DNA from: Actinomycetaceae bacterium
GTDB lineage: Bacteria > Actinomycetota > Actinomycetes > Actinomycetales > Actinomycetaceae
DNA length: 64,000 bases
NCBI GenBank assembly: GCA_017539125.1
Contig: JAFYHO010000054.1
Coordinates: forward strand, 12,171-76,170
Direction: 5' to 3'
The position numbers were made by a program, and so were the translations under genes. Below, in pieces: positions 3,854 through 43,415 of this stretch (the stretch's first letter is position 1; every line of letters starts with the position of its first letter). The notes beneath the pieces were generated by a model. The model was not told the DNA's origin. It made no database searches and worked only from the letters and a program-made list of their open reading frames with translations.

Positions 3854-3998
3854 GCCCTTAGTATACAAACCCGTCGTCGCGAGGAGTCCCGCTAGGGACG
3901 ACGAAGCAATCAATAGTCCGTTACTGCGTGCGTTGCAAAGCAAGCAATGTCCATTATTGATTGCCGCGTCGGCACTCCGTGCCTCCTCGCAATGACGG
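3800..3998. repeat. palindromic repeat family, locus A: one reverse half-unit at 3800-3834 and a full unit at 3870-3998
   Basis: 3800-3834 reads GATTGCTTCGTCGCTTCGCTCCTCGCAACGACGGG. 3870-3998 runs CCCGTCGTCGCGAGGAG...CGACGAAGCAATCAATAGTCCGTTACTG...CAATGTCCATTATTGATTGC...CTCCTCGCAATGACGG. The arms are inverted copies of each other. Confidence 0.85.
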
Positions 3999-4027
3999 AG
4001 GCGGTGAGATGGCGGATGGCACACTCG

Positions 4028-8658: not shown

Positions 8659-8667
8659 CGAGTGTCC

Positions 8668-14478: not shown

Positions 14479-16137
14479 ATGGATACGCCAGTTGAGTCCA
14501 CTACCGATAGCGATGTGAAACCTACATTGCCGTCATATATTCTTCGTTTCTTCACGCACTACGTTTTGTTTTTTTTCATCCTGTCTATTATCTCTTTACT
14601 CCTCGTCGCTTTTACTTTATCCCTGTTTGAGGAGATCGTAAACAAAGTATCAGATGAGGTTATTTTGTCTATCGGACTACCGCTGGCAGTGTTCGCTTAT
14701 ATTTTCCTCATACATCTCATCACTCGTAATAGGCGTTTTCTTCGTTTTAAGCGCAGCGACGCAATCATGTATAGCGCTATTTTTGTTCTTTTTACTGTTA
14801 CTGATCTTATCGTTATTGCTTTCACGGATGGTCTGACCATTGGTGGGCCGCCCACTACAGTTCTTCTGATTTTCGCTTTCCCGTTCTTCCCTTTTATTTT
14901 CCTTTATTTGTTTGCGGGAATGGCGTTACATCTGCATTTGGTGATACTTTCTATTCTTTTCTTCATCTCAGTTTTTGCTTGGATTGTGACGCGCAATGAA
15001 ACAGCCGCCGCAAAAGAGCGCGTCGAGAAGGTGGACGCAAGCGCGGCGCAACCACTTGTGAGAAGAAAATCTGTGCTTGTAAAGCCTCTTTCTGCGCTTA
15101 CCGTCGTCGCTCTTGTGGGGGCTGGCGGCCTCGTGTGGGGGTATATGACCAATCCGGCCCATAAATATAAAGGTCATGATTTTGAGTATATGAATGGCTA
15201 TTCGAGTACTGATTTTACTGATTACACTCCGTATGCTGACCCGTCGAAGCTCGTCATGCTTGACCATAAGCCTTCGCTTGTTATCGATGACGAGGAGGAT
15301 ATGCCTGTGCTTGACGGCGCGGAGGCCTGTTACCCGTTGTATTCTTCGGTCGCGAAAAATGTGTATACAAATATCGCCGAGATTGAGCGGGAAGCTACCG
15401 ACATCGAAAACGGTGACTACGGAAGCTACCACACCAATGGAAAAATTGTCTCTTTTACTAATAGCTCTGTGGGCTATCAGCGCCTGCTGGACGGGGAGGT
15501 AGACATATTCTTCGGTGCGAAGCCATCCGAAAATATGGTTCAAAAGGCAAAAAAAGAGGGCAAAGAGTTCCGCATGACGCCTATCGGGCATGAGGGTTTT
15601 GTGTTTTTTGTCGAGAAGAATAATCCTGTCGATAATCTTACTAGTGAGCAAGTGAAAGCTATCTATTCTGGTGAGATTACGAATTGGAAAGAGGTTGGCG
15701 GACCCTACCGGAAAATTCTTGCTTTCCAGCGCCCCAATGAGTCTGGCTCGCAGATTATGATGAAGCACTATATGGGCGATGTGCCTTTGAAAGAACCTGT
15801 GACGTATGAAACCGTTGGTGGTATGGGTGACGTTATCGATATTGTTGCAGAGTATGGGCATGACAAGGGCGCGATTGGTTACACTTTCCGTTATTTCCTT
15901 GAGGGCTTGCATCAAGAAGATGGTGTCAAAATGCTTTCTATTGACGGGGTGTATCCGTCAGTCGAGAACATTTCTAATGGCACGTATCCCCTTGTTGCCG
16001 ATGTGTACGCTGTCACCCTCGAATCGAATGACGACCCCAATGTACAGGCAATGCTCGATTTCCTCGTCTCGCCTGACGGCCAAGAAATCGTCGAACGCTC
16101 CGGCTACGCTCCGCTTTCTCAACAGAAAAGCAAATAA
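14479..16137 (+). CDS. polytopic membrane domain fused to a PstS-like (phosphate-binding-protein fold) extracellular domain
   Basis: The first ~190 aa are strongly hydrophobic, with about 5-6 TM segments. The C-terminal ~300 aa read ...SFTNSSVGYQRLLDGEVDIFFGAKPS...LTSEQVKAIYSGEITNWKEVGG...AFQRPNESGSQ...GAIGYTFRYF...DGVYPSVENISNGTYPL, which is typical of the PstS / PBP-like-2 family. Confidence 0.7.
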   Translation: MDTPVESTTDSDVKPTLPSYILRFFTHYVLFFFILSIISLLLVAFTLSLFEEIVNKVSDEVILSIGLPLAVFAYIFLIHLITRNRRFLRFKRSDAIMYSAIFVLFTVTDLIVIAFTDGLTIGGPPTTVLLIFAFPFFPFIFLYLFAGMALHLHLVILSILFFISVFAWIVTRNETAAAKERVEKVDASAAQPLVRRKSVLVKPLSALTVVALVGAGGLVWGYMTNPAHKYKGHDFEYMNGYSSTDFTDYTPYADPSKLVMLDHKPSLVIDDEEDMPVLDGAEACYPLYSSVAKNVYTNIAEIEREATDIENGDYGSYHTNGKIVSFTNSSVGYQRLLDGEVDIFFGAKPSENMVQKAKKEGKEFRMTPIGHEGFVFFVEKNNPVDNLTSEQVKAIYSGEITNWKEVGGPYRKILAFQRPNESGSQIMMKHYMGDVPLKEPVTYETVGGMGDVIDIVAEYGHDKGAIGYTFRYFLEGLHQEDGVKMLSIDGVYPSVENISNGTYPLVADVYAVTLESNDDPNVQAMLDFLVSPDGQEIVERSGYAPLSQQKSK

Positions 16138-16301: not shown

Positions 16302-18398
16302 CTACTTGATTGGCTTCTCACCATACCAAGCAGTTCCTTCGGCTTTCCAACCGTGCTGGGCAATGAGTACATTCCATTCATTCGTATCTGTAGTGTAATG
16401 ATGCTGAGCTGGTTGCGGCAAATTCTGGTTGTACAACCTACGCAACTCCACACTCTTCTTTGGATCGGAGTACCACGCCACACCTTCGTATCTCCAGCCA
16501 TGCTGTGCAGTCAGCACAGATTTCTCATGAGAATCCATCGTGTAGTGATGCGCACTCGAAACTGGATTATACAAGCGATAAACCTCGTATCCTTTCGTTC
16601 CAGACTTAGGTGCACACCATGCCACTCCCTCATATTGCCATCCATATTTAGATACAAGAACATTCTTTTCATTTTGGTCTAATGTGTAGTGGTGCTTTCC
16701 GCCAATCCCAGGATTGTAAAGACGGAATACTTGCTTACCTGAACACTTCTTCTCAACAGGCACAGGCTTAGGTTGCGCAGCTGCACAGCCGTTATCATTG
16801 TTGTTTATATCGGCTGAATTATCTGAGAAGGCTTTGCCTTTAGAAGAGATGCAGTTATTTTTGAAGACGTTTCCTGCACCTTCTTTCGACCTAAGATCGA
16901 CCCATGTCTGTCCACCATAGTTCGCTTTGCTTGACACTCTATTGCCGCTAATTGTCGCCTTCTTTACGCCTGTCACATAGATTCCAAAGCGACCAGAAGA
17001 CCGCACAGTGTTATTCGTAATTTTGCAGCCTGAACCAGCTTTTTCAAGCTGGATTCCGTCTTGAGCGGAGTTTTCGATAACCGAGTTTTGGACAGTTACG
17101 ACTGACCCATTGGCGGCTCTGATGCCGTGCTGTCCCGCGTTACGGAAGGTCGATTTACTAATAGTTCCTTTCGAGGAACTATCGTAAGTAGCATTATTTT
17201 TTGCCGAATTAGAAATGGTCACGTTCGACAGATTGATTGTTGAACCATTCCTAGCCGAGATTCCATATTGAGAGTTATTCACTGTACAACCAGTCATGTC
17301 AAGCTTCGACTTGTCATCAACAAAAACAGCTACGTCAGAAGCGTTCTGCAGCTTGTGGCCAGAGCCAATACTCGCGGTTGACCCTTTTTGCATAAAAACA
17401 GAAGCGATGGAACCGTTACCAATCAACTTGGCATTTTTTGAATCAAGCGCATATAAGAAATTTATTGGGGCTGTTCCTGAAAGTTTGTTCTTCTCGATAA
17501 CTGCATTATCCATTGAAGCAAGAGTAATGACTCGCCCGGAAATCTTCTTGAAAGTATTACCGCGAACAGTTAATCCACCAACCTTTGATTTGTAAGCGCC
17601 ATTTTTAAGGGTAGCGATAGTACGATGATTTCCAACCGCAGAAATGACATTTTCAAACGTATTATTTTCTACAAGCACTTTTCCTGCTGGAGTTCCGTCT
17701 TTAACGGTGATTGCATTCTCTCCGTTATCTGCAAAATCGAGATGAATCACTTCAGTAACTGTGGCGGGTTTTGAGTTGTCGGCCCAAAATTCTGTATCGC
17801 TATTTGAAGCAATCACTTGGTTTTTGAAAGTACTATTTTTGATAACAACATTTGTCGACGCAGAAACATTGATGAAATGGTTGACACAATTTGTGACTGT
17901 CACCCGATCGAAAGTGATGTTTTTTCCATGACGAATCATGAATCCCCCGTTATTTGCCGTCTTTTGGCCTGAACGTGCCCCGCCGTCCCACGTGCCACCC
18001 ACGATTTCAATATCATGCGGACCGTTGTATCCTCTACTACCGTCAATATCTGAATAGACAATCAAGTGGTTACCACGAATAGTCGCACCGGAATCGGCAA
18101 CAACTTTAGTATTCGATGGAATCTTAAGTGGACCGCCAATCACATATGTGCCAGCCGGGATCCACACAACCCCTTTTTTCGAAGGTGTTCCTTGTGCCCC
18201 TGCTTGATTAAGAGCCGTCTGTAATGCTGACTGAGTTTGAGCAGATACGACAATAGCGCCTGCTGGTGGTGTTCCATTAGTTAAGACGACGGCATTTTTT
18301 GCCGCAGCAGCTTCGGCTGGAGCAATGTTTAAGAAAGCCCCTGCCGCTAAGAGCGTTCCCGCACACACCAAAGCAAATAAATTACGTGTCAATTTCAT
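16302..18398 (-). CDS. secreted right-handed beta-helix (pectate-lyase-fold) protein with three C-terminal RLYNP-HHYT-GW-EG repeats
   Basis: Start moved to MKLTRNLFALVCAGTLLAAGAFLNIAPAEA, a signal peptide, preceded by a GAAGGGA SD. The long central region has periodic N/T/G-rich turns such as NSTFKNQ, ENNTFENV, VRGNTFKK, ITNNTVRSS and ISGNRVSS. The last ~148 aa carry three repeats of about 40 aa. There is no LPXTG motif. Confidence 0.75.
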   Translation of the reverse strand: MKLTRNLFALVCAGTLLAAGAFLNIAPAEAAAAKNAVVLTNGTPPAGAIVVSAQTQSALQTALNQAGAQGTPSKKGVVWIPAGTYVIGGPLKIPSNTKVVADSGATIRGNHLIVYSDIDGSRGYNGPHDIEIVGGTWDGGARSGQKTANNGGFMIRHGKNITFDRVTVTNCVNHFINVSASTNVVIKNSTFKNQVIASNSDTEFWADNSKPATVTEVIHLDFADNGENAITVKDGTPAGKVLVENNTFENVISAVGNHRTIATLKNGAYKSKVGGLTVRGNTFKKISGRVITLASMDNAVIEKNKLSGTAPINFLYALDSKNAKLIGNGSIASVFMQKGSTASIGSGHKLQNASDVAVFVDDKSKLDMTGCTVNNSQYGISARNGSTINLSNVTISNSAKNNATYDSSSKGTISKSTFRNAGQHGIRAANGSVVTVQNSVIENSAQDGIQLEKAGSGCKITNNTVRSSGRFGIYVTGVKKATISGNRVSSKANYGGQTWVDLRSKEGAGNVFKNNCISSKGKAFSDNSADINNNDNGCAAAQPKPVPVEKKCSGKQVFRLYNPGIGGKHHYTLDQNEKNVLVSKYGWQYEGVAWCAPKSGTKGYEVYRLYNPVSSAHHYTMDSHEKSVLTAQHGWRYEGVAWYSDPKKSVELRRLYNQNLPQPAQHHYTTDTNEWNVLIAQHGWKAEGTAWYGEKPIK

Positions 18399-18648
18399 TG
18401 ATTTCCCTTCTACTACTTTCACCGATTAAATAGTGATTTTCCTGCATTTTAACAGAAGAAGATAAGTGCTACAACGAGAGAAAACAGTGTAGGCGCAATG
18501 GAGCCCCTTCATCGTAATCCGCTACTTATCTAAAAGCAGGCCTACCATCCGCATGTCAGGTGAACAAAACAATCTCAGGGAATGAATGTGATACAGTCAC
18601 ATCAAAAAGTAGTTACCGCTAAAGCCCATGCCTTGGGGAGAAGAAAAG

Positions 18649-19798
18649 ATGGATAAAACCACACCTAAGTCCACTAAAAGCAATCAAACTACACCAATAC
18701 GCACCCGAATTGCATGGTTGGCATTGCACGCTCTATTGCCATAATTTCCATTACTCTCAATCACGCGGTTAATAGGAGTTTTTCTGTCTATCACGGGCAG
18801 CATAACGAATTCGTTGAATTGCCGTTATGGGTTTCCGTTACTGAAGCAACTGTGGCCACATTCAGCCGACTTGGTGTCCCGCTTTTCTTGATGATTACAG
18901 GCGCATTGATGCTGCACAGGGATTATGAAAGCAAAGGACGCATCTCCCGTTTTCTCAAATATAATTGGCTTCAACTGCTTATTACAACCGAAATATGGTT
19001 GACGATAATGTTTTGGTATATACAGTTACTACCAAAGTCGGTTCTGCGTACAGACGGTATTGGAGAATGTCTGAAAGATTTTTTCTGTACTTTATTGTTC
19101 ATAGATCCAGTCACAATGGGAAATATGTGGTACATGTCGATGATACTGTGCGTCTACTTAATGATTCCGATTCTCGCAATAGGCCTTAAAAGAATTGATG
19201 TCCGCTTTTTGCTTTACCGATGGCTATCGTAATCTTCAGTAATTACATATTGCCAGACATTAATGCCGTGAAGAAAGTGTTGGGATTTGAAAAACAATTA
19301 ACTACTGAGCTTGCAGGTAACAATGTTTTTTCGATGTTTGTTGTATGCATACTTATTGGTTATTTCGTAGTTCATCATAATGTAATGGGAAAGATAAGCA
19401 CGCCAGTGCTCATCGGACTGACCATCGTATCTTTTGTTGCCTTCTGCGCATTTCAGCTTTGGTTTTTCTCCGCTGACTATGATTACGTAATCCGCTACAA
19501 CAGCTGCTTTCCCCTGATAACGGCAACATTTCTTTTTGAACTTTTACATAGGGCGCAACCTGGCAAACAGATTAGCAGGATTGCAGAAAAACTATCAAAA
19601 ATGGCTCTCGGAATTTACTTCGTCCATATTTGTATCATGGAAGGGCTTATGGCTCTTATTAATCACTATCACTGGGATATAACGCATTTGTCGAGACTTG
19701 CTTTTCTAGAGCTGGTTTCATTCTTTGGATCAATACTGATTATTCTGATTTGTGAAAAGTCGGAACTGATGAAAAAGTATCTTTTCATCATCAAGTAA
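18649..19798 (+). pseudogene. acyltransferase-3 family O-acyltransferase interrupted by two frameshifts
   Basis: Three frame-shifted pieces. 18649-18744 reads MDKTTPKSTKSNQTTPIRTRIAWL.... 18714-19232 reads ..VGIARSIAIISITLNH...GVPLFLMITGALM.... 19220-19798 holds further TM segments. RIAWL+GIARSIAI matches RLEWLDIAKGIAI of the intact paralogue at 27142-28218. The breaks coincide with a GG(G) run near 18717-18721 and a T5 run at 19206-19210. Confidence 0.65.
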
Positions 19799-19893: not shown

Positions 19894-20958
19894 ATGTATT
19901 TCCTTGATGAGAAGGTTCGGAATCTTCATCGTATTTTTGATCAGAATGCTCGACGTGGCTATCTGCGTCTTGATTTGAACGAGAATCCTGGCGGTCTGCC
20001 TCAAGAACTTATTGATAAAGCCTTCGACGGGGTCATTACTCCCGAGTTTGTTGCACAGTACCCCGAAACTCTACATTTCACTGAGGTACTCGCGAAACAC
20101 TTGGGTACAGACATTTCCCATGTGTGCCTAACTAATGGTTCATCTGAAGCTATCCGTTACGTCATCGAAGCCTTTACCTCAGATAATGGTCGTATTGTTG
20201 GGGTTGTTCCCTCGTATTTCATGTTCCAGATTTATTCCGAAATGTACGGGAAAAATATCGTTCAGGTGCCGTATCGTGACGATTTGAGTATGTACGTGGA
20301 AGATATTATCGCTGAGCTAACCGAGGATACTGAGCTACTGATTTTACTCAACCCCAATAACCCCATGGGGAACGTCTATACCCGTGAAGAATTTGAACAG
20401 ATTATGACGGTCGCTAGGGAAAAGGAAATAACTGTCCTTGTCGATGAGGCCTACCATTATTTCTATCCAGAAACGTTCCTTGACTATGCCTTGAATGAAG
20501 AACACGTCTTTGTGACTCGTACTTTCTCCAAAGCCTTTTCCATGGCAGGGTGCCGCCTCGGCTATGTCATCGGCTGGCCTGAGGGTATTGCGATGGTTCA
20601 AAAGCTGTGTACGCCCCACAATACGAATGCTTTTGCCATGCAGATGGCAGAAACCATTTTGGAAACCCCTGGAGCAATCGAAGGTCTTATAGAGCGCTTC
20701 AGCAAAGGCCGTTCTTATCTTATCGACGCGCTCGATGAACATGGTTATAAGTATCAAGGCCAGGCAGGTAACTTCCTGTTTATTCAACCTAAAACAGATG
20801 CCCATACGATTGTTGCCCGTATGAAAGAAGAAAAGAAAATCCTCATCAAGGTATACCCCGATGTGGGCCATCTCGGCACCTGCCTACGCGTCACCATCGG
20901 AGAAAAGCAATATATGGAGCAATTCCTAAATGCCCTCCTAGAACTCGACCGCCTCTGA
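19894..20958 (+). CDS. class-II (HisC/CobD-type) PLP-dependent aminotransferase
   Basis: Motifs LDLNENPGGLP, NPNNPMG, and the PLP-lysine context TFSKAFSMAGCRLGY. Confidence 0.8.
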   Translation: MYFLDEKVRNLHRIFDQNARRGYLRLDLNENPGGLPQELIDKAFDGVITPEFVAQYPETLHFTEVLAKHLGTDISHVCLTNGSSEAIRYVIEAFTSDNGRIVGVVPSYFMFQIYSEMYGKNIVQVPYRDDLSMYVEDIIAELTEDTELLILLNPNNPMGNVYTREEFEQIMTVAREKEITVLVDEAYHYFYPETFLDYALNEEHVFVTRTFSKAFSMAGCRLGYVIGWPEGIAMVQKLCTPHNTNAFAMQMAETILETPGAIEGLIERFSKGRSYLIDALDEHGYKYQGQAGNFLFIQPKTDAHTIVARMKEEKKILIKVYPDVGHLGTCLRVTIGEKQYMEQFLNALLELDRL

Positions 20959-21063
20959 ACTCTGCTCGGCATTTTTGGCGCTTTAACTTGCGTCTTTTCC
21001 TAGAGAAAGAAATAATGAAAGTTAGATTGCCATTGCGATAAAACCGCGAGTAAAAGGATTCAT

Positions 21064-21909
21064 GTGAAGAATAACAAGACAGTTAGTAAACAATACTTGA
21101 CTCCTGTTGAGCTACACAGCGAACTTCTGTCTATTTTGCGAGCTTTCGCCTCTTTCTGCGATTCCCACAATCTCCGCTACACACTTGTCGGCGGCTCGAT
21201 GCTGGGCGCTGTGCGCCATCAAGGATTTATTCCATGGGACGACGATATTGATGTCGGTATGCCACGCCCCGACTATGAGAAGCTACGAACTCTCGAGGCT
21301 GAGTTTTACGAAGAGACAGGTTATAAGCTCTCTGGCTATCGTTCGCTCAAACTTAAAGATTCTCCAATGATAAAGATAGAAAATGAGCAGATTAACTGCT
21401 TGGAGATGGGGACAGTTCCCGTCAAGCTCTGGATTGACCTCGTTCCCGTTGACGGCCTTCCCGCAAACGACCGCTTGAACTGGGTGGTTTGCCAAAGCGC
21501 ATTTGTCGTGCGACGAGTCCTGTCAATCATGCTTACTCCACGTAATGAGCGCTCTGGCAGTTTTGGTGGATTTATCAAAGACAAAATCGTTGGCCCCACG
21601 ATATCGGCAGTGCCGGGTATTGCAGTTGCGACATCAAAACTTCTCACTACTATTGCGAGGCGAATTCCTTTCGGTTCTTCTGCTCACGCTGGCATCGTAG
21701 CTTTTGGTATATATCGCGACGCGGAACGTATCTCTTTGAATGGCTGGACGGAGACTGTAGAGGTAGATTTCGAGGGAGAGAAGTATCGTGGGATTAGCTG
21801 TTGGGACGAGTATTTAAGCCAGCTGTACGGCGATTACATGAAACTTCCGCCCGAGGAAAAACGCGAAACGCACGGGCTTAGCGCGTGGCGAGTAGAGGAG
21901 GAGCAATGA
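21064..21909 (+). CDS. licD: LicD-family phosphotransferase (paralogue 1)
   Basis: GTG start after an AAAAGGA SD. Motifs GGSMLGAVRHQGFIPWDDDIDVGMPRPDYEKL and C-terminal LYGDYMKLPPEEKRETH. Confidence 0.85.
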   Translation: MKNNKTVSKQYLTPVELHSELLSILRAFASFCDSHNLRYTLVGGSMLGAVRHQGFIPWDDDIDVGMPRPDYEKLRTLEAEFYEETGYKLSGYRSLKLKDSPMIKIENEQINCLEMGTVPVKLWIDLVPVDGLPANDRLNWVVCQSAFVVRRVLSIMLTPRNERSGSFGGFIKDKIVGPTISAVPGIAVATSKLLTTIARRIPFGSSAHAGIVAFGIYRDAERISLNGWTETVEVDFEGEKYRGISCWDEYLSQLYGDYMKLPPEEKRETHGLSAWRVEEEQ

Positions 21910-22736
21910 GCGAGCTTCTCAGCCTCGAAGAGCTGCAAAAAGTGTATATAGAGCTCCTCGCGGATTTTGACAGCATATGTTCTGCGCACGGTTTGCGTTA
22001 TGACCTGTGTGGTGGCTCGATGCTGGGCGCTGTGCGTCACGAGGGCTTCATTCCGTGGGATGATGATGCAGACGTGTCGATGCCGCGTCCTGATTATGAC
22101 CGCCTCATCGAGTTGGCGCTCGCGGGCGAACTGCAACTTCCAGAAGGCCGTGAAATTGTCTGCCAGCAGGCAGGAACTTTTGCACGCCCCTACGCTCGTC
22201 TTGTCCGCCATGATGTGGAGAGAGTTGCACAGTATTTGAGTGATGATGACTGCCCTTATATTGGGCTTGATATTTTCACGGTTGACGGTTTCCCTTCGTC
22301 TAACGTAGCTTTTAAGGCACAAACAAAACTTCTCAAAGCCTTGCGTTCGGCGCTTCTTGTCTCCCTATCCAAGCCGGGAACGTCCTCGCGTTCTGGAGCC
22401 GTGGCAAAAGCTAAAGATGTGCTTCGCCCGCCGCTTCAAGCAATCGGTTCTATGCATCTTGCTGCCCTTTATGAAAAAATGTGCCGTCTCGTGCCGTATT
22501 CCAAGGCAGAATATGTCGGTATTGCTAACGGGATGTACGGAACGAAAGAGCGCTGGCGCAAGGACGATATGCTGCCGCAGCAGCAGTGGAAATTTGAGGG
22601 CTTATCCTTGCCGGGTTATCGCAATGCCGATATGTATTTGTCGAACTTGTACGGCTCATACATGGATTTGCCGCCCGAATCAGAGCGCGAACCTCACTGC
22701 GACGAGGCGCGTTGGGCCGGAAAGGACACACAATGA
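21906..22736 (+). CDS. licD: LicD-family phosphotransferase (paralogue 2)
   Basis: I take the start as ATG 21906, which forms an ATGA overlap with the upstream stop and is preceded by GGAGGA. Motifs GGSMLGAVRHEGFIPWDDDADVSMPRPDYDRL and LYGSYMDLPPESEREPH. Confidence 0.85.
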   Translation: MSELLSLEELQKVYIELLADFDSICSAHGLRYDLCGGSMLGAVRHEGFIPWDDDADVSMPRPDYDRLIELALAGELQLPEGREIVCQQAGTFARPYARLVRHDVERVAQYLSDDDCPYIGLDIFTVDGFPSSNVAFKAQTKLLKALRSALLVSLSKPGTSSRSGAVAKAKDVLRPPLQAIGSMHLAALYEKMCRLVPYSKAEYVGIANGMYGTKERWRKDDMLPQQQWKFEGLSLPGYRNADMYLSNLYGSYMDLPPESEREPHCDEARWAGKDTQ

Positions 22737-23566
22737 CATCGGATTTGCGTCGTCTTCAACTTGAAGAGCTTGCTATTCTTGAGGATTTTGTTGCTGCCTG
22801 CGAGGAATACGGGCTTCGCTACTATCTGCTTGGCGGCACTTTACTGGGCGCCGTGAGGCACAAGGGTTTTATTCCATGGGACGATGATGTCGACGTAGCG
22901 ATGCCGCGCGTCGATTACGACCGTCTCATTTCTTTGTGGGATTCACGCGAATGTGAATACACAATGGTTACACCCGATACTCCCGGCTATCGTTATCCGT
23001 GGGCGCGCCTCGAATCATCGCGAGTACGTATCCGTAATCATTCAGCGAATGTTCCACGTATTGAAAACGCGTGGATTGATATTATTCCTTTTGATTCAAT
23101 ACCCGATAATCCTGTGCTCCGCACCTTACATAAAACACGGCTTTCTCTGTGGTGGAATCTCAATCAAATTGTGCAATTTGATGAGCTTGTCGACCAAAAA
23201 CGTCAGCGTTCTTTGCCAGGCAGACTCGCTATTTCTCTTGCGTCTAAGTTCAAGTGGATTGGTTCGCTTGTTGATTATAAGACGACGTTGCGTGGCCTCA
23301 ATCGAACGCTCATGAAGTATCCGTACGATATGGACACTCGCGATATTATTAACTTCCTTGCCGCCTATGGCTTTGACGAGATTTTCCCTAGGCAGGCCTT
23401 TGCCGAGACAGCTTTGTATGACTTTGAAGGTAGGCAATTTGTTGGTCCGAAAGATTACCACGAGGTGTGTCTTCGCATTTACGGCGATAGCTACATGGAG
23501 CTTCCTCCTGAAGACGAACGCAATAAGCACAATGCAGAAATTCTCGATGATGACGAATTAGGGTAG
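22733..23566 (+). CDS. licD: LicD-family phosphotransferase (paralogue 3)
   Basis: I take the start as ATG 22733, which forms an ATGA overlap with the upstream stop and is preceded by AAAGGA. Motifs GGTLLGAVRHKGFIPWDDDVDVAMPRVDYDRL and IYGDSYMELPPEDERNKH. Confidence 0.85.
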   Translation: MTSDLRRLQLEELAILEDFVAACEEYGLRYYLLGGTLLGAVRHKGFIPWDDDVDVAMPRVDYDRLISLWDSRECEYTMVTPDTPGYRYPWARLESSRVRIRNHSANVPRIENAWIDIIPFDSIPDNPVLRTLHKTRLSLWWNLNQIVQFDELVDQKRQRSLPGRLAISLASKFKWIGSLVDYKTTLRGLNRTLMKYPYDMDTRDIINFLAAYGFDEIFPRQAFAETALYDFEGRQFVGPKDYHEVCLRIYGDSYMELPPEDERNKHNAEILDDDELG

Positions 23567-23650
23567 GATTGAGCACATGAGCGCCCTGACTGTCAAAGAC
23601 AATAAGCGACCTGCGGAGGCTCTGGACGTTTTGCATCGGCGAGGTATTGT

Positions 23651-24985
23651 ATGAAAAAGGTACTGACATACGGCACGTATGATTTGCTCCATCATGGGCA
23701 TATTGCTTTGCTTGAGCGTGCCAAGGCTCTCGGCGATTATCTGATTGTCGGTATTACTTCCGACCAGTTCGACCGTGACCGTGGCAAGCTGAATGTACGG
23801 CAGTCCCTTGTCGAGCGAATCCGCGCAGTCGAAGCCCTTGGGATTGCAGACGAAATCATTGTCGAGGAATATCAAGGGCAAAAGATTGACGATATCGTCG
23901 CCCATGACGTCGATATTTTCACGGTCGGCTCCGATTGGGTGGGCAAGTTTGACTATCTACGTGAGTATTGCGAGGTTGTCTATCTTGAGCGAACGGCAGG
24001 GGTTTCTTCCTCGGAGATTCGCGAGGAAGAATCAGGGATTGTGCGCCTCGGCATCATTGGCGGCGGCTCTCGCGCTCTCAGATTTGCCCGCGAATGTCAG
24101 TATGTCTCTGGTGTAGAGATTATTGGTGTGACGGCAGCTAATTCAGGGGGCGATTCATCTTTCGCTGACGGCATGTCTCTGCTGGTCTATTCGTCTCTGG
24201 CTGAGTTACTCCCCGATATTGACGCGCTCTACATTATTGACACCGTCGATACGCACGCCACGCTTATTACCCAAGCGCTTGAGGCAGATTGTCACGTCAT
24301 CTGCGAGACCCCGATGTTCATGTCTGAGCACGAAGCACGTGAAGCTTTTGCTTTGGCTGAATCTCGCGGGCTTGTTCTTTTTGAAGCTGTCAAGACCTTG
24401 TGGGCTCCCGCCTTTAGGCGCTTGCTTCTTCTCGTAGAATCGGGCGCTATTGGCGAGGTTAAAGCCATTGATGTTGCCTGTACCCAGATTCCCGCTGATT
24501 TGAAGAGGGTGCGCGAAAACGTTTATGAGGGCAGTCTGTATGACTGGGGAACGCTTGTTCTCCTACCTATCTTCCAGCTCCTGGGAACGTCCTATCATTC
24601 TTGCGAACTTTACGAGATGAAAGACGGCGATTTTTCTGCTTTCGTTCGTGGAAATATCGCTTATGAGAATGCCATCGCAACTTTCTCTGCTGGTCGAGGA
24701 ATAAAGAGTGAAGGTCACCTTATCATTACCGGTACTGAAGGATATATTTACGTTCCTGCTCCGTGGTGGAAGCCCGAGTACTTCGAGATTCGTCATGAAG
24801 ACTTACGCGAAACAAAGCGTTTCTCTTTCGCTTTCGAGGGCGAGGGCATGCGATACGAGATTTTGGAGTTTATCGCCATGATTCGCACTAGAAATCTCGA
24901 CAACCGTCTTCTTTCCAAGGACCACATCTTCGCTGTTGCAGATATTATTTCTCGCCTGCACATTGGGGATACTGTCCAAATCTAG
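23651..24985 (+). CDS. bifunctional protein: TagD-like glycerol-3-phosphate cytidylyltransferase (N-terminal) fused to a Gfo/Idh/MocA oxidoreductase (C-terminal)
   Basis: The N-terminal ~130 aa read MKKVLTYGTYDLLHHGHIALLERAKALGDYLIVGITSDQF...FTVGSDWVGKFDYL...ERTAGVSSSEIR, with an HxGH motif and close resemblance to B. subtilis TagD. The remaining ~310 aa start VRLGIIGGGSRALRFA..., a Rossmann fold, and continue ...HVICETPM..., which is Gfo/Idh/MocA-like. Confidence 0.8.
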   Translation: MKKVLTYGTYDLLHHGHIALLERAKALGDYLIVGITSDQFDRDRGKLNVRQSLVERIRAVEALGIADEIIVEEYQGQKIDDIVAHDVDIFTVGSDWVGKFDYLREYCEVVYLERTAGVSSSEIREEESGIVRLGIIGGGSRALRFARECQYVSGVEIIGVTAANSGGDSSFADGMSLLVYSSLAELLPDIDALYIIDTVDTHATLITQALEADCHVICETPMFMSEHEAREAFALAESRGLVLFEAVKTLWAPAFRRLLLLVESGAIGEVKAIDVACTQIPADLKRVRENVYEGSLYDWGTLVLLPIFQLLGTSYHSCELYEMKDGDFSAFVRGNIAYENAIATFSAGRGIKSEGHLIITGTEGYIYVPAPWWKPEYFEIRHEDLRETKRFSFAFEGEGMRYEILEFIAMIRTRNLDNRLLSKDHIFAVADIISRLHIGDTVQI

Positions 24986-24997
24986 GAGATGTGCTAT

Positions 24998-26056
24998 ATG
25001 CCGCGGTTATCTGTCATAACACCTTTTTACAACGTTTCAGAATTACTTTTTTCTGCATGCGTCGATTCTATTCTTAACCAAGATTTCACAGATTTTGAGT
25101 GGATTATCGTTGACGACGGCTCAGATGAAAAAAGTGCTACGATGCTGGATAGTTATGCCGCGCGAGACGAGCGCATACATGCGTATCACTGTGGCAATGA
25201 GGGCGTTTCTGCCGCGCGCAATAGTGGGCTCGATGTGGCAGTGGGCGACTATTTCACTTTTGTCGATGCCGACGATCTCGTAACACCTATTTTTTTCAGT
25301 AACTCCACAGAAATACTCGACCGCACTAACGCCGATATCGCCTATGGCTTCCTCCGACGAACTGGTGGCAATTCTATCCTTGGTGTTGACGCAGGCGATT
25401 TGCGAGAAGAAGTTTTGACAGGAAATAAGCTGTCGCTTTTCCAGCGTGGCGTACTCGCGGGAGAGAAATTGCCTGGTCTGGCAGAAGTAAAGAAATACGC
25501 TCCGTATCCAGTTGCCCCAAAAGTTTATCGTCGAAAAGTATTTAGTGAACTCCGCTTTAGGCGCGGTATGCCTGTCGGCGAAGATTCCCTTTTCAATGCC
25601 ATGTCACTCGATATAGCCCAATCCATCGTTCTTATTCCAGAGCATTGGTATAACTACATCATTCACCGCCACTCTGTTTCCCAAGCGCCCGCATTGGATA
25701 AATTATTAGACCAGCTTGCCGGGTTTTCCGCATATATTGACGAGGGTTCTGCGCGGGGGTGGAACAAGTCTGATGTCGGCATGAGGTATGCTCACGCACT
25801 CGTAAATGTCCTTTCCGTCCTTGCTAAGTACACATCTATTGGTGAAATGCGTCGTTTTACAAAAAACGCTCTTAAGCTTGATGCTGCAGCATGGCTGGGA
25901 GATATTGACATATCCAACTACGAGCTCTCGCCACAGTTCCGCCTGCTTGCCACAATGATTCACCATAAAAGGGCGAATGCGATTGTTGCTCTTATGAAAG
26001 CGCAACCTACAGTTGATGTCCTGAAAGCACGTGTTCACCGTATGCTAAAGAATTAA
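24998..26056 (+). CDS. family-2 glycosyltransferase
   Basis: LSVITPFYNVSELLFSACVDSILNQDFTDFEWIIVDDGSDE...VDADD. The start ATG 24998 lies 9 nt after AGGAG. The track start at 24989 abuts the SD. Confidence 0.85.
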   Translation: MPRLSVITPFYNVSELLFSACVDSILNQDFTDFEWIIVDDGSDEKSATMLDSYAARDERIHAYHCGNEGVSAARNSGLDVAVGDYFTFVDADDLVTPIFFSNSTEILDRTNADIAYGFLRRTGGNSILGVDAGDLREEVLTGNKLSLFQRGVLAGEKLPGLAEVKKYAPYPVAPKVYRRKVFSELRFRRGMPVGEDSLFNAMSLDIAQSIVLIPEHWYNYIIHRHSVSQAPALDKLLDQLAGFSAYIDEGSARGWNKSDVGMRYAHALVNVLSVLAKYTSIGEMRRFTKNALKLDAAAWLGDIDISNYELSPQFRLLATMIHHKRANAIVALMKAQPTVDVLKARVHRMLKN

Positions 26057-26129: not shown

Positions 26130-27137
26130 ATGGCGGAGAAAGTACTCACTATCTCTGTAGCTGCATACAATGTTGCGGACTATCTGAAGCAGACGCTTGA
26201 ATCATGCCTTGCACTATCCTACAAGGATTTTGAGGTACTCATCGTTAATGATGGCTCAAGCGACACAACAGCTCAGATTGCCGCCGACTATGAAAAACAC
26301 TATCCTGACATCTTCAAACTTGTATCTAAAGAAAACGGCGGCTATGGTTCAACGGTCAATACTGCTCTTGAGGTGGCACAAGGTAAGTATTTTAAGCTTT
26401 TGGACGGTGACGACTGGTTTGACACCGATGGTTTAGAGTCTCTGCTTAGCGTTTTACGCGATAACGATGTTGACCTTGTTCTCACTCCTTATGTCCGTCA
26501 AGAAGAAGGTGTTGGGACAAAAATTGTTGATCAGGCAGAGGGGATTGAGGAACGCATATGGGATTTTGACGAGTGCCCTATTCCTTGGCGTATCTCCATG
26601 CATTCAATGGCATATCGCACCGCATTAGTTCGCGAATCGGGTCTGCGTCTCGAGGAACATTGCGTCTATACTGACACTGATTACATTACGGAACCTTTGC
26701 ATCGTGTTCACACAGTCTATGTAAGCCACACTCCTGTTTATCAGTATCGGATAGGGCGCGAAGGCCAATCAATGGAACGTGCGGGGCGTATTCGCCACCG
26801 AGGCGAAATGGAATCGCTCATTTATCGTATGCTTAAGCGTTGGCCGTCTCTCGAAAATACAAATACTACTGCGGAACGGGTATGCCGAGCTTGGCTTATT
26901 GATGATATTGTCGGTCACCTTCAACTTCTTTATTCTATGGATGCTTCCGATCAGATAAAGGACGAGATTCTCCGTTTTACTGAGTATGTGCGTACAGCTG
27001 CACCAGCGCTTTACCGCGATACTCTCAAGCATTCCCAGTGGGCTTTCCTTTTTGATAAAGGTGGCGCTCGCGGATATAAAGCAGTCAGCGCAGCTTATCA
27101 CGCTTTTCTTGCTGTAAAAGATGCTCTGAAACGCTAA
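26130..27137 (+). CDS. family-2 glycosyltransferase
   Basis: LTISVAAYNVADYLKQTLESCLALSYKDFEVLIVNDGSSD...LDGDD. This is the last gene of the + operon. Confidence 0.85.
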   Translation: MAEKVLTISVAAYNVADYLKQTLESCLALSYKDFEVLIVNDGSSDTTAQIAADYEKHYPDIFKLVSKENGGYGSTVNTALEVAQGKYFKLLDGDDWFDTDGLESLLSVLRDNDVDLVLTPYVRQEEGVGTKIVDQAEGIEERIWDFDECPIPWRISMHSMAYRTALVRESGLRLEEHCVYTDTDYITEPLHRVHTVYVSHTPVYQYRIGREGQSMERAGRIRHRGEMESLIYRMLKRWPSLENTNTTAERVCRAWLIDDIVGHLQLLYSMDASDQIKDEILRFTEYVRTAAPALYRDTLKHSQWAFLFDKGGARGYKAVSAAYHAFLAVKDALKR

Positions 27138-27141
27138 TACA

Positions 27142-28218
27142 TTATTTGGATATTTTCCGCACAAGGGCGACAAGGAGCAAATCGTATCCGAAACGCAGCA
27201 AAGATTTAGCAATCCAGCTATCTGCAATTGGCGCGACTGAAATTGCGCTGAGCATAAGGAGCCTGCCATCGATAGCGTGCATTGCGTAGATTTCAAGAGA
27301 ATGTCTCCCCGTCCATGCCACTGCCTTCTCGGCGTATCGAAGAATGGGAACAGTACGCAGGGCTTCAATGCCCAAAGAAATATAACAAAGGGCTAAGGTT
27401 CCAGCAAGCGCGCCGCATATCGCGAGTAGATAGTTGTCTCCCCACGCGCGCGATGACATTTCAAATGTCGAGTACCGTGTAGCAATTATCCAGAGTATAA
27501 ACGCCACCACTCCAACAAAGACGAGCTTTAGACGCACTGCATTGAGCACTTTTATGAGCTGACCGAAGAACATGAAGCCGACGGCGAGCAATGCCAAATC
27601 AAAATCAAAAGGCAGATATACCAGTAACTTTTGCGGGACAACAAAGGCGAGGGCAAGCATCAGCACACCAGTGCCAGCGATTATCCACGGGTTATTATCC
27701 TGTTTCCATTTAGCGGCAATACGCAACAAAGCATTAGCAAGAATACGCGCAAGGAATAGGCACCATAAAAACCATGCCATTCCAACCCCGTAAAAACCGC
27801 CGCCAACATAATCAAGTCGAACACCAGCCCACATGCTTTGTGGCATCCATTGTGTCGACGGGTAACCTGCGGGAAAGACAAGTGCCTGTGCGAGCGCGAG
27901 AAAACGCGAAGATATTGGCGCATCACTTGTGAGCACATTCGGCAATACAGCTATCGCCACAATGAGTATGTAGGGCAAAAGTAGGCGCTTCGCCGAAGAC
28001 TGCAGAACTGTTTTCCACGGTTTTGCCCGCAACGTGAAGCCTGCGAGAATAAAGAACGCTGGCATATGAAAGGAAAAGATAAGTTGGCGAACTGTCCCGT
28101 GGTCAACCGTATGCCCAACCACAACTAAAAAGATGGCAATGCCTTTAGCAATGTCTAGCCATTCCAAGCGAGACGAAGCAGGCAAATCACCAGATTCTCT
28201 CGTTTTCTGCGCCATCAA
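27142..28218 (-). CDS. acyltransferase-3 family O-acyltransferase (intact)
   Basis: RLEWLDIAKGIAIFLVVVGHT plus about 10 TM segments. Its stop lies 4 nt from the convergent GT2 stop. Confidence 0.8.
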   Translation of the reverse strand: MMAQKTRESGDLPASSRLEWLDIAKGIAIFLVVVGHTVDHGTVRQLIFSFHMPAFFILAGFTLRAKPWKTVLQSSAKRLLLPYILIVAIAVLPNVLTSDAPISSRFLALAQALVFPAGYPSTQWMPQSMWAGVRLDYVGGGFYGVGMAWFLWCLFLARILANALLRIAAKWKQDNNPWIIAGTGVLMLALAFVVPQKLLVYLPFDFDLALLAVGFMFFGQLIKVLNAVRLKLVFVGVVAFILWIIATRYSTFEMSSRAWGDNYLLAICGALAGTLALCYISLGIEALRTVPILRYAEKAVAWTGRHSLEIYAMHAIDGRLLMLSAISVAPIADSWIAKSLLRFGYDLLLVALVRKISK

Positions 28219-29684
28219 TTTTCCTTTTTCTTCAAACCACTTGTATCGAGAAGCTCAAGGAAAAAAGGATCTTTACGTATAAGTAACCAAGCAAAAGTGC
28301 AGGCAAGGAAGAAGATTGCTCCAATTCCCACTTCAAGGAATAGACCTGGATAACTCAATCCCCACATCGCACGCGTCACGTGAGCAACATAGCGCACCAG
28401 TACTGCCATGAGAACACCAATAATAAAGAAAGGAATAATGCGAGCAAAGAAACGACCAACTGGTAATTCTTTGCGAACCATGATGACTTGGGCAACCAAA
28501 ACAGCAACTTCTGCAGCAATTGTCGCTATTGCTGCCCCTAAAGACCCGTAGGGTTTAATAAGAATCAGGTTTAAGACAATATTGACAACAGCTCCAGCGA
28601 GAACCGAGATAGTGAAAAACCAGTCTTTATGACTGGGAAGTAAGTATTGATTGCCAAGAACATTCGTCGACGCAATCAAAGGGACGACTCCAGCTAAAAC
28701 AATCATCGTAGGAATTGCAGGACTGAATGTACCTGATAAAAACTTTGTCACAAATTCGGGGGCAATTGCTCCAATGCCAAAAGCGGCAGCGAAAGCCGCA
28801 ATCATCATAAACCAGAAGGACAACTCCAACGCATGTAAACCTAAGGCTCTGTCTTCCTCGTTATCACTGGAAAAATACGAAGACATACGAGGAAGCATGA
28901 CCGCGCCAAGTGCAGTAATAACGGCGAGAGGAATCTTGGCAACACGCTCAGAGTACTCGTAGTAACCAGTTTGAACCATTGTCGATATCGCGCCAAGCAT
29001 GATTTTGTCTAAAACAGTGTATAGAGAGATGGCGATGACGGGAATGAAAAGGCGGAGTGAGGGACGAAAATGGGCGCTAATCTCTTGCCATGAAGGAGTG
29101 TAGAAATCGACATACCGCGGGATAAAAGGCAAAACGAGAAGCTGAGAAACTAAATAGCCACCCGCAATGATAATCACGTAAATCCACAGATCTTCATAGG
29201 ATTTCACCAAAGTAAAAATAAGTACAAGCTCGGTGACTTTAACGATCACATTGCGAATTGTCGGAATTTTGAACTCTTCAACTCCAAAAAGGAGCCATGA
29301 AGCATTCAACGCTGCCGAAATAATCCAAAAACACCAGAAAAAAGCTATCTTATGTCCACCTTTAGGCTCGGGGATCCAATACACAAAATAAATTGCTAAA
29401 ACTATCGCAGCGATAAGCAGCTGGCTAACATAGGCGCTCCAAAACGCTTTTGACAATTCCTGGCGATTATGGCGTTTCATTGCCACAAGGCGCACGCCAT
29501 ACGTCGACATTCCTAAGGTTGCAAAAAGAACAAAATACTGAGTAATTGAAGAAGTATAAGAGTAGACGCCCACGCCAGTCGGTTCAAGTACACGAGATAA
29601 ATATGGAGTCGTAATAAGCGGAGTAATAATCAGGAGTACCTGATACGCCGCGTTATAGAGAAAACTGTGCCGTAGGCGTGGCAT
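28215..29684 (-). CDS. Wzx-type oligosaccharide flippase (MOP superfamily)
   Basis: 489 aa and polytopic. The N-terminus LYNAAYQVLLIITPLITTPYLSRVLEPTGVGVYSY is typical of polysaccharide-biosynthesis flippases. Confidence 0.8.
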   Translation of the reverse strand: MPRLRHSFLYNAAYQVLLIITPLITTPYLSRVLEPTGVGVYSYTSSITQYFVLFATLGMSTYGVRLVAMKRHNRQELSKAFWSAYVSQLLIAAIVLAIYFVYWIPEPKGGHKIAFFWCFWIISAALNASWLLFGVEEFKIPTIRNVIVKVTELVLIFTLVKSYEDLWIYVIIIAGGYLVSQLLVLPFIPRYVDFYTPSWQEISAHFRPSLRLFIPVIAISLYTVLDKIMLGAISTMVQTGYYEYSERVAKIPLAVITALGAVMLPRMSSYFSSDNEEDRALGLHALELSFWFMMIAAFAAAFGIGAIAPEFVTKFLSGTFSPAIPTMIVLAGVVPLIASTNVLGNQYLLPSHKDWFFTISVLAGAVVNIVLNLILIKPYGSLGAAIATIAAEVAVLVAQVIMVRKELPVGRFFARIIPFFIIGVLMAVLVRYVAHVTRAMWGLSYPGLFLEVGIGAIFFLACTFAWLLIRKDPFFLELLDTSGLKKKEN

Positions 29685-29704: not shown

Positions 29705-30763
29705 CTAATCACTCAAAGCAACTATAGTACGTTCGAGTCCTTCAGGCATAGTTAAACTGGCTTTCCAGCCAAGGGCGTGGGCGCGGGCAGGATTGAGGAT
29801 TGCACGGGTTGCTGTGGAATACCCTGCTCTCTCTGTTTCGTCTGGCAAATCGAAAATGACCTGAGTGCCAGCACTCTCAGCAATCGCAGCCGCAATATCC
29901 CGCAAGCTCATATCGCAACTCGAATCAGCGAGGTTATAGGCAGCACCCGCGTCGCCACGCGTGAGCACCCAGAGCATTCCGCACACAGCATCACGCACAT
30001 GCAAGTAGGAGAAGAACTGCGTTCCTTCCGATTTCAACACGACATCTTCGCGTGCCACACCCTTAAAAATGAACTGGCTAATCGCTTTAGTATCCGAGGG
30101 CAGAACTGTTGCTCCAAAAATGCGCGGCAGACGGGGAATGAATACGGGCAGATTCTTCTGCGCCATATAGGCCTGGCAGAGCGCTTCGCCTGCACGTTTG
30201 GCTTCAGGATAGCCAGCACGTAGAGTATTGCAATCAATATAGCCCAAATAATCTTCACTGAAAGAATCAGTATCGCCGCGATTTTCTCCGTAAATCTCAA
30301 CAGAAGAGGCAAAAACAAATGCGTCTGCTTCCGAAGCAACTCCATACTCCAAAAGATTCGATAAACCCGTCATATTAGACGCGATAGTACCAATCGGGTC
30401 GCTCGCATAGGCGCGAGGGTGAGTGGCAGAAGCGAGATGAAGAATAATATCGGCACGCTTATTTGGGCGCGCTCCATGAACCGACACATCGCACACTTCA
30501 AAAGAAAAATCGTCACGATCAAAATACGGCAGACGCTTGCGTGCTTTTTCCTCATTACGCCCCAAAGCAAGAACGTGGCAATCCAAATGCGCTATATCGT
30601 TTTTCAACAGCAAAACATCGATGAGAAATGTGCCGACCATACCGGTCGCCCCAGAAATCGCAATAGTTTTACCGCGCAACTTTTCCCAATCAAGCCCGCT
30701 TGCGCATACGTATTCACAATCTTCGTGATACAGAGGATTATCTAAATAAGTCGTCGCGCCCAT
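29705..30763 (-). CDS. extended short-chain dehydrogenase/reductase (NAD-dependent epimerase/dehydratase family), candidate ribulose-5-P reductase
   Basis: Rossmann motif ISGATGMVGTF and catalytic YxxxK (YPEAKRAGE). It lies immediately downstream of the TarI-like gene. Confidence 0.75.
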   Translation of the reverse strand: MGATTYLDNPLYHEDCEYVCASGLDWEKLRGKTIAISGATGMVGTFLIDVLLLKNDIAHLDCHVLALGRNEEKARKRLPYFDRDDFSFEVCDVSVHGARPNKRADIILHLASATHPRAYASDPIGTIASNMTGLSNLLEYGVASEADAFVFASSVEIYGENRGDTDSFSEDYLGYIDCNTLRAGYPEAKRAGEALCQAYMAQKNLPVFIPRLPRIFGATVLPSDTKAISQFIFKGVAREDVVLKSEGTQFFSYLHVRDAVCGMLWVLTRGDAGAAYNLADSSCDMSLRDIAAAIAESAGTQVIFDLPDETERAGYSTATRAILNPARAHALGWKASLTMPEGLERTIVALSD

Positions 30764-30778
30764 TTCATGTACCTCGTC

Positions 30779-42286: not shown

Positions 42287-42510
42287 ATGACAACCTTTCT
42301 CTCTACTAACACCTCTAAAATAAAGGAATACGTTCCCAAAGATGAGAGGACATAGGATTAAAGTCCTACGACACGTAGTATTCCACACCTCAGGAAACTA
42401 CACGGTTCTTTTTATGTGTGAAACCCTACCCTATATGAAAGCTTACTATTTCTTTACTAATCTGCTCCTCGACGGCATTGCACATGGCAATTTCGCTCAC
42501 AATACGACAG

Positions 42511-43356: not shown

Positions 43357-43415
43357 TCTTTTCTCCTTATCCGTCCACTCATATGTAGGACACGTTACTA
43401 AGCTAGTCTAAACAT

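Follow-up and report, generated by a model that had tools for sequence, protein, structure and literature searches.

In the TarI/TarJ, Bcs1 and Campylobacter jejuni HS:5 CDP-6-glucitol pathways, a cytidylyltransferase is combined with, or fused to, a carbonyl-processing enzyme to yield a CDP-alditol, the cytidylyltransferases being of the IspD fold and their partners active medium-chain or short-chain dehydrogenases/reductases (MDR or SDR). In the capsule locus of C. jejuni, the aminotransferase Cj1437 makes (S)-serinol phosphate from dihydroxyacetone phosphate (DHAP), and Cj1436 makes phosphoethanolamine from phosphoserine (PMC11800397). Pneumococcal loci carry the LicD-family gene wchX, followed by genes annotated as 'dehydrogenase', 'nucleotidyl transferase' and 'phosphotransferase', for glycerol-2-phosphate (PMC1391919, PMC5581491, PMC3493582). 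Here we describe a related gene module in a 64,000-nucleotide stretch of DNA from an Actinomycetaceae bacterium (GenBank assembly GCA_017539125.1, contig JAFYHO010000054.1, positions 12,171 to 76,170; hereafter the window). The module comprises a HisC-like aminotransferase gene, three licD genes and a gene encoding a TagD-like cytidylyltransferase fused to a domain of the Gfo/Idh/MocA fold (the C-domain). We rate the chances as about even that this cassette attaches an amino-C3 alcohol, through a phosphodiester link, to a Wzx-dependent surface polysaccharide; our confidence in serinol specifically is lower than in this overall picture.

In function, the window module may be likened to Cj1437/Cj1436, in that a dedicated pyridoxal phosphate (PLP) enzyme sits in a polysaccharide locus and would draw a small phospho-amino-alcohol from central metabolism. 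The Campylobacter pathway differs, however, in that an ATP-grasp enzyme couples the amine to glucuronate as an amide, after which the phosphate is cleaved off, with no CTP activation and no LicD. The TagD/Gct systems with LicD- or TagF-type transferases, including wchX-gtp1-gtp2-gtp3, share with the window TagD-family synthesis of a CDP-alcohol and LicD transfer to a glycan, but the window enzyme does not reach the equivalog cut-off for TagD, carries a Gfo-fold domain in the same polypeptide and is coupled to an aminotransferase; the pneumococcal Gtp1-3 set can be placed beside the window by annotations and gene order alone. GnnA/GnnB and the KijD10-type 3-ketoreductases show the same fold as the C-domain (TM-scores 0.78-0.86) and the same pairing of an oxidoreductase fold with an aminotransferase. 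Unlike these, the window protein lacks the catalytic Lys and Tyr, its aminotransferase is of the HisC rather than the DegT type, and the proposed substrate is a C3 phospho-alcohol, not a hexose.

The fusion gene (23651-24985, + strand, ATG start) is one uninterrupted frame of 444 amino acids, and both domains are matched, bearing out the first-pass annotation of this DNA, which had read it as a single TagD::Gfo/Idh/MocA polypeptide; the strings cited there (HHGH, RTAGVSSSEIR, VRLGIIGGGSRALRFA and SKAFSMAGCRLGY) are all present in the translations. The N-terminal, TagD-like domain (residues 1-130; 23651..24040, +) matches Pfam CTP_transf_like over residues 5-125 (E 1.6e-17), but its score against the glycerol-3-phosphate cytidylyltransferase model TIGR01518, 119.1 bits, is under the equivalog cut-off of 165.4. 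Its best solved relative is B. subtilis TagD (1coz, E 9.6e-39); the ethanolamine-phosphate cytidylyltransferase 3elb is also related (E 1.9e-12). Both nucleotide-binding motifs, HxGH and RTxGxS, are present as HHGH (residues 14-17) and RTAGVSSS (residues 114-121), and H14, H17, R114 and T115 are invariant among 52 fusion homologues. Residues 72-78 read EEYxGQK throughout the fusion family, with E72, E73, G76, Q77 and K78 invariant whatever the partner enzyme (see below); this stretch presumably differs from B. subtilis TagD. The C-domain (residues 131-444; 24041..24985, +) matches GFO_IDH_MocA (PF01408) over residues 132-244 (E 9.6e-17, 62.2 bits vs. a cut-off of 24) and contains the Gfo/Idh/MocA Rossmann motif string VRLGIIGGGSRALRFA.

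The fusion is widespread. A search of 5.8 billion proteins gave at least 8000 candidates, and the 120 matches listed, from Lachnospiraceae, Oscillospiraceae, Gemella, Eggerthellaceae, Atopobiaceae and others, are all 437-461 amino acids long with both domains. Taking one genome per species, we found it in at least 571 species genomes of Bacillota, Actinomycetota, Bacteroidota, Fibrobacter and Methanobrevibacter; the carriers include Bacteroides, Prevotella, Alistipes, Fibrobacter and one Methanobrevibacter metagenome-assembled genome. A metagenome scan with the C-domain alone returned 573 stretches. The C-domain directly follows a TagD domain in all 78 scorable loci of 80 metagenome loci, and a split cassette was accordingly rejected for these loci. 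Stand-alone relatives of the C-domain do exist, as catalytically intact paralogues in other contexts. A plasmid search gave one full-length match, on the megaplasmid of Ruminococcus albus 7, together with a class-V aminotransferase and three licD genes; matches on Lactiplantibacillus plasmids proved to be plain tagD. No NCBIfam equivalog covers the fusion, its public names are generic, and we found no description of it in the literature searched, which left most subscription journals outside its coverage.

To which enzymes the fusion is coupled was analyzed by clustering the neighbour genes of about 165 fusion loci, combined with tblastn; partners were counted in the 99 loci whose flanks extend for at least 2.5 kb in each direction. 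A FabG-like SDR accompanies the fusion in 51 of these, usually as the next gene downstream, a class-V (PhnW/AGXT/SerC-like) aminotransferase in 31 and a HisC-like aminotransferase in 7; one locus has two partners and nine have none. The two aminotransferases are not homologous (BLASTP E 0.65) and yet occupy the same position beside the fusion, for example in Gemella and on the R. albus 7 megaplasmid. That a reductase alternates with two unrelated transaminase families implies, as far as enzyme families can tell, that the cassette handles a carbonyl and that in the window version this carbonyl is truly aminated. The transferases near the fusion are LicD, TagF-like or CDP-alcohol phosphatidyltransferases, all users of CDP-alcohol donors, and the predicted product of the cassette is a CDP-alcohol. 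Glycerophosphodiester phosphodiesterase (GDPD) domains recur as fusion partners of C-domain relatives, which together with the TagD-like domain points to a skeleton of the glycerol-phosphate type. The reductase-type cassette of the 51 loci corresponds to the logic of TarI/TarJ, Bcs1 and HS:5; in the window, by contrast, the fused domain has degenerated and carbonyl processing falls to a protein of its own, the aminotransferase. A phosphonate (2-aminoethylphosphonate) pathway, raised by the PhnW-like class-V partner, was set aside, there being no phosphoenolpyruvate mutase or decarboxylase among the annotated window genes.

Reductase-type cassettes (L012, L016, L020 and others), the most frequent form, occur mostly in Bacteroidota, and candidates for their product are an enantiomeric glycerol phosphate, glycerol-2-phosphate or something else. 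In the gut-metagenome loci L096, L097 and L107 (gene -1 of the fusion) and L167 (4619-5991), a CDP-alcohol phosphatidyltransferase stands in place of LicD, together with a class-V aminotransferase; this hints that the same head group may be put on a lipid. In Ruminococcus sp. (L172-L174, 645-8662), the stretch just after a flagellin gene holds the fusion, then a second, stand-alone Gfo/Idh/MocA gene that is catalytically intact, and a licD gene; two neighbours (3684-4658 and 7838-8662) have no Pfam match. The arrangement may serve flagellin glycan modification.

The aminotransferase of the window (19894..20958, +, 354 amino acids; Pfam Aminotran_1_2, PF00155, E 8.5e-44) is a fold-type I, class I/II PLP enzyme whose translation contains SKAFSMAGCRLGY, with the SKAF lysine motif. 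One explanation for its presence would be a housekeeping histidinol-phosphate aminotransferase lying beside polysaccharide genes by chance: the hisC model TIGR01141 is indeed its top-scoring NCBIfam family, and all its solved relatives are HisC structures. The hisC score, 233.9 bits, nevertheless falls below the equivalog cut-off of 276.55, and the gene sits in a low-GC island among polysaccharide genes. In unrelated genomes, moreover, copies 100 %, 75 % and 65-70 % identical to it adjoin the fusion gene, and a licD gene is usually close by; in L001-L003 and L179-L181 the aminotransferase lies directly upstream of the fusion, with polysaccharide genes as neighbours. More than 100 database clusters are 72-75 % identical to the window enzyme. 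We found no histidine or cobalamin genes among the annotated neighbouring open reading frames (ORFs) of the window, in agreement with the first-pass annotation. The score below the cut-off and the repeated adjacency to the fusion, together with the polysaccharide setting, effectively exclude an ordinary HisC, which we consider extremely improbable. Grouping with housekeeping HisC had been the main objection that the first-pass annotation raised against its own proposal, and these findings answer it. They support instead, at the level of sequence, the earlier suggestion of a dedicated transaminase, a partner of the fusion and LicD; the three-gene neighbourhood that the first-pass annotation had recommended searching for recurs in other genomes in the form just described. 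In L001-L003 and L179-L181 (about 4246-5834), genes for a FemAB-like protein (Acetyltransf_6) and a GNAT protein lie directly upstream of the 75 %-identical aminotransferase, and their products could acylate or aminoacylate the new amine.

The HisC/CobD fold also raises the possibility that the enzyme is a decarboxylase, turning phosphoserine into phosphoethanolamine so that the module makes CDP-ethanolamine. Cj1436 decarboxylates L-serine phosphate (PMC11800397), the CobD model TIGR01140 gives the window enzyme 148.5 bits, the cytidylyltransferase domain is related to 3elb (see above) and LicD enzymes transfer zwitterionic head groups. We nevertheless regard this route as very unlikely: the CobD score is far under the 233.9 bits obtained with hisC, TagD is by far the nearest relative of the cytidylyltransferase domain (E 9.6e-39 vs. 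1.9e-12 for 3elb), and the PhnW/AGXT/SerC-like transaminases and SDRs that serve as alternate partners fit carbonyl chemistry and leave decarboxylation without a place in the pattern.

Three licD ORFs, each with a LicD domain (E 1e-32 to 2e-37), lie between the aminotransferase and the fusion, all on the + strand: LicD1 (21064..21909, 281 amino acids counted from the first GTG, E 1.3e-32), LicD2 (21885..22736, 283 amino acids, E 4.9e-35) and LicD3 (22712..23566, 284 amino acids, E 1.8e-37). The three proteins are only 31-33 % identical to one another. For the fusion, the aminotransferase and the LicD proteins alike, the domain matches are much stronger than chance would produce. LicD2 is 49-57 % identical to the fusion-adjacent LicD of the Gemella loci L004, L006, L007, L087, L089 and L090, and in several loci from Oscillospiraceae and metagenomes an orthologue likewise stands next to the fusion. 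Since these orthologues directly adjoin the fusion gene, LicD2 is the best candidate for the transferase that would use the CDP-donor of the module.

The C-domain retains an intact two-domain fold in its predicted structure (AlphaFold2, pLDDT 88.8), with Foldseek TM-scores of 0.86 to KijD10 and 0.78-0.80 to GnnA. Its catalytic residues are a different matter. In HMMER alignments, E219-T220-P221 falls on the E-K-P of 3evn, 4had, 3e9m and KijD10, with Thr in place of the catalytic Lys (K102 in KijD10); D298-W-G-T-L302 aligns to KijD10 D182-I-G-V-Y186, with Leu replacing the catalytic Tyr; and Q279 stands where intact relatives carry Lys or Arg (K/R279). The loss of the catalytic Lys, the catalytic Tyr and the pocket Lys/Arg suggests that the window C-domain is most likely no working dehydrogenase. 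The redox step that the first-pass annotation had assigned to this half of the fusion is thus not borne out, relatives outside the aminotransferase-type cassettes keeping the same residues. That annotation had also named a C-domain without NAD-binding or catalytic residues as evidence against its proposal: the catalytic residues are indeed gone from the window protein, but the dinucleotide-binding motif GxGxxA is kept there (G137-G-G139-S-R-A142), as is D298, the motif being lost in most close homologues. Among the 120 closest homologues of the window protein, G139 is present in only 20, Asp taking its place in 49, and K220 is found in one, E219 in 46 and Y302 in 27.

The pattern of loss depends on the type of cassette. 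Stand-alone, GDPD-fused and metallophosphoesterase-fused relatives of the C-domain nearly all keep GxGxxA, E-K-P, K/R279, E298 and Y302; K220 is present in 15/16 relatives that are GDPD- or Metallophos-fused or otherwise extended and in 19/22 stand-alone ones. Reductase-type fusions lack only the E-K-P Lys, with G139, K/R279 and E298 each present in 64/64 and Y302 in 50/64. In aminotransferase-type fusions, both the E-K-P Lys and K/R279 are gone, and positions 139, 298 and 302 drift. When aminotransferase-type and reductase-type cassettes were compared at matched TagD divergence, the values were 37 vs. 47 %, respectively, for the Rossmann half and 45 vs. 57 % for the C-terminal half; in these alignments the C-domain diverges more in the aminotransferase-type cassettes.

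These data bear on a pathway in which oxidation precedes amination, following the logic of GnnA/GnnB and WbpB/WbpE: TagD would make CDP-glycerol from glycerol-3-phosphate (G3P), the C-domain would oxidise C2 with NAD(P)+ to give CDP-dihydroxyacetone, and the aminotransferase would convert this to CDP-serinol. A two-domain fusion usually signals consecutive steps, the nearest characterised structural neighbours (KijD10 and GnnA, at the TM-scores given above) use nucleotide-linked sugars, the GDPD fusions point to G3P as the entry metabolite, and the window protein keeps GxGxxA and D298. We nonetheless consider such a pathway unlikely, given that the E-K-P Lys, the Tyr/His and K/R279 are missing in the window but kept outside the aminotransferase-type cassettes, that the second glycine of the NAD motif is absent in 100/120 of the closest homologues, and that the C-domain diverges faster where an aminotransferase is the partner.

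The C-domain is not junk, however. Every cassette type keeps K248, K352, E354, E379, R381, E383 and R401 with little or no variation, a degree of conservation that marks the domain, on sequence grounds, as retained under selection. Two pocket positions follow the partner enzyme. Position 279 is K/R in 64/64 SDR-type fusions and in 0/51 aminotransferase-type fusions, which have Q, S or T, and once H; position 299, beside the conserved acid, is L, H, M or S in SDR-type and W, E or Q in aminotransferase-type fusions. Within Bacteroidota and Fibrobacter these residues follow partner type and not taxon: residues 279/299 are K, L in Bacteroides L012 (reductase), Q, E in Xylanibacter L013 (HisC-like), and Q, Q in the class-V loci L019, L022, L026 and L035 (Fibrobacter, Bacteroides, Prevotella). 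The loss of a positive charge and the gain of an aromatic, acidic or amide residue fit a pocket that faces an ammonium instead of a hydroxyl group, but the same pattern would equally be expected from co-evolution with the surface of the partner protein. The co-variation of these positions with the partner enzyme suggests that the C-domain probably still serves to bind the C3 head group or to dock the partner enzyme.

We propose the following pathway for the window. The fused domain is not reliable as a maker of ketone, and the ketone would therefore come from metabolism, DHAP, which Cj1437 turns into (S)-serinol phosphate, being the obvious candidate. The HisC-like enzyme would transaminate this ketone phosphate, most likely giving serinol phosphate, which the TagD-like domain (23651-24040) would, by homology, join to CTP to form CDP-serinol. 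Conserved adjacency suggests that a LicD protein, most likely LicD2, would then move serinol phosphate onto a sugar hydroxyl of a lipid-linked repeat unit, which would give a zwitterionic substituent comparable to phosphoethanolamine or phosphocholine. An alternative order is equally possible and would lead to the same end product: DHAP could be cytidylylated first, and the aminotransferase could then act on CDP-dihydroxyacetone. A DHAP-first order would explain why E72, E73, G76, Q77 and K78 are invariant across partner types. Thus, the aminated donor of the first-pass annotation, for which CDP-serinol had been given as an example, keeps its amination, for which the swapping of reductase and aminotransferase partners argues, with CDP-serinol as a candidate product.

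A number of observations weigh against this picture. The window aminotransferase is separated from the fusion by the three licD genes and not adjacent to it, and enzymes of the HisC/CobD fold also include decarboxylases such as Cj1436. Few residues of the TagD-like domain separate reductase-type from aminotransferase-type cassettes, and a common substrate, DHAP or G3P, fits this uniformity at least as well as serinol phosphate does. The window fusion keeps GxGxxA and D298, and some residual or altered redox chemistry may persist; conversely, so many invariant charged residues are unexpected in a mere relic. GNAT N-acetyltransferases are only weakly enriched near aminotransferase-type cassettes (5/60 vs. 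1/68), too slight a signal to support an amine product. Finally, serinol is deduced from enzyme families, and neither phosphodiester-linked phospho-serinol nor CDP-serinol was found in the literature searched, mostly without subscription journals; a preprint on S. pyogenes qim deals with GlcNAc-ribitol and has no connection with the cassette.

The module could also be a counterpart of the pneumococcal gtp1-gtp2-gtp3/wchX set, making CDP-2-glycerol or plain CDP-glycerol, with a PLP protein that is no transaminase. The window shares with the pneumococcal annotations a LicD, a TagD-like domain and a domain of dehydrogenase fold. There is, however, no plausible phosphotransferase chemistry for a PLP aminotransferase fold, and the fact that an unrelated aminotransferase family can take its place speaks for true transamination. 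Streptococcus is absent from the 120 relatives listed for the fusion and for each of the two aminotransferase families, and the clusters of 20 stand-alone relatives of the C-domain bear no streptococcal names either. By domain content, the reductase- or GDPD-type cassettes fit the pneumococcal set better, and we regard a Gtp-like role for the window module as quite unlikely. Catalytically intact C-domain relatives occur in varied fusions with GDPD, calcineurin-like phosphoesterase, LicD and TagD domains, in proteins of up to 1240 amino acids (P0376, P0397, P0398, P0403, P0407, P0423 and others; L177, 2948-5089; L178, 3987-5825); judged by domain content only, they may correspond to the pneumococcal dehydrogenase/nucleotidyl transferase/phosphotransferase trio.

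Beyond the window, we tentatively propose, with rather less than even confidence, a modular CDP-C3-alcohol cassette present in hundreds of gut, rumen and oral species from several bacterial phyla and in an archaeal metagenome-assembled genome of Methanobrevibacter. In this proposal, a non-redox former dehydrogenase domain, joined to the TagD-like cytidylyltransferase and turned to binding the head group or docking the partner, would work with a swappable partner (a reductase, either of two aminotransferases or a GDPD) that sets the head group, and the aminotransferase versions would install an undescribed zwitterionic phospho-serinol (2-amino-glycerol phosphate) on surface glycans and, in some Bacteroidota, possibly on lipids by way of adjacent CDP-alcohol phosphatidyltransferases. 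The TagD-family cytidylyltransferase, LicD transfer and the HisC-fold aminotransferase are of known kinds. Apparently undescribed are the way in which these parts are assembled into a cassette, the interchange of partners, a degenerate dehydrogenase domain whose pocket residues are specific to the partner, and phospho-serinol as the predicted head group. If an amino-glycerol phosphate is indeed installed, the gut microbiota of humans and animals would possess a head group that is both new and very common. Phosphodiester-linked zwitterionic groups on glycans (phosphocholine, phosphoethanolamine, the amino and phosphonate groups of Bacteroides) affect immune recognition, phage adsorption and charge-dependent resistance; the cassette is common in host-associated microbiota and would be of immunological relevance if its substituent is zwitterionic. 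The partner enzyme and fusion residues 279 and 299 provide a genomic rule for predicting the head group, and the C-domain offers a clear example of a dehydrogenase fold kept after its catalytic residues were lost. At such loci, the thousands of database proteins that go by 'glycerol-3-phosphate cytidylyltransferase', 'Gfo/Idh/MocA oxidoreductase' or 'histidinol-phosphate aminotransferase family protein' are probably misnamed.

The module belongs to a block of polysaccharide genes at 14-36 kb with 42-51 % G+C, flanked by housekeeping genes of 55-60 % G+C: topA (11424-14147), tmk and holB on one side and murT (38724-40160) on the other. The low-GC block, the 49-57 % identical licD genes and the syntenic genes in Gemella and Oscillospiraceae suggest that the locus was acquired horizontally. 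Downstream of the fusion lie two GT2 glycosyltransferase genes on the + strand (24989..26056, Pfam Glycos_transf_2 E 9.4e-29, and 26130..27137, E 6.5e-31). They are followed on the - strand by genes for a membrane O-acyltransferase (Acyl_transf_3, 27142..28218, E 6.9e-26), the Wzx-type flippase (28215..29684, Polysacc_synt E 4.3e-29), an extended SDR (29705-30763, Epimerase E 3.3e-37), an IspD-like cytidylyltransferase (30779-31504, IspD E 1.3e-40), a DUF4422 protein (31514-32281, E 1.1e-78) and a priming polyprenyl-phosphate hexose-1-phosphate transferase with a WbaP-type C-terminal domain (32331-32972, Bac_transf E 1.6e-48). A galE gene is also among those surrounding the module.

The IspD-like enzyme and the SDR form a second CDP-alditol pair (29705-31504). 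Both are under every NCBIfam cut-off, the IspD-like enzyme scoring 129 bits against the ribitol-5-phosphate cytidylyltransferase subfamily, and the SDR differs from the usual zinc-alcohol dehydrogenase type of TarJ. The same pair accompanies the fusion cassette in L004-L011 and L178. It probably supplies a CDP-alditol donor for another of the LicD paralogues, and the LicD proteins not engaged with the fusion product would use this donor.

Just upstream of the aminotransferase, a second Acyl_transf_3 gene (18714-19798, +) appears as two overlapping ORFs, 18714-19232 and 19220-19798, which align to positions 6-154 and 182-324, respectively, of one Pfam profile. A run of T at about 19205-19215 lies near the overlap, and the split is likely a frameshift, be it phase variation, a pseudogene or an assembly error. 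The polysaccharide locus is bracketed by genes for two large proteins ending in DUF5648 (16302-18422 and 40181-42388, both -), one with right-handed beta-helix repeats and the other with leucine-rich repeat and Big_2 domains, which may be surface proteins that bind or degrade glycans. At the edge of the low-GC island, 14479-16137 (+) encodes a PstS-family phosphate-binding protein of 552 amino acids with an unexplained N-terminal extension of about 310 residues. A second glycan block (42511-49795, -) contains RmlD, an 846-amino-acid double GT4 protein, an unannotated ORF of 244 amino acids and an ABC-2-type permease of 728 amino acids, and may direct the synthesis of a rhamnose-containing, ABC-transporter-dependent polymer.

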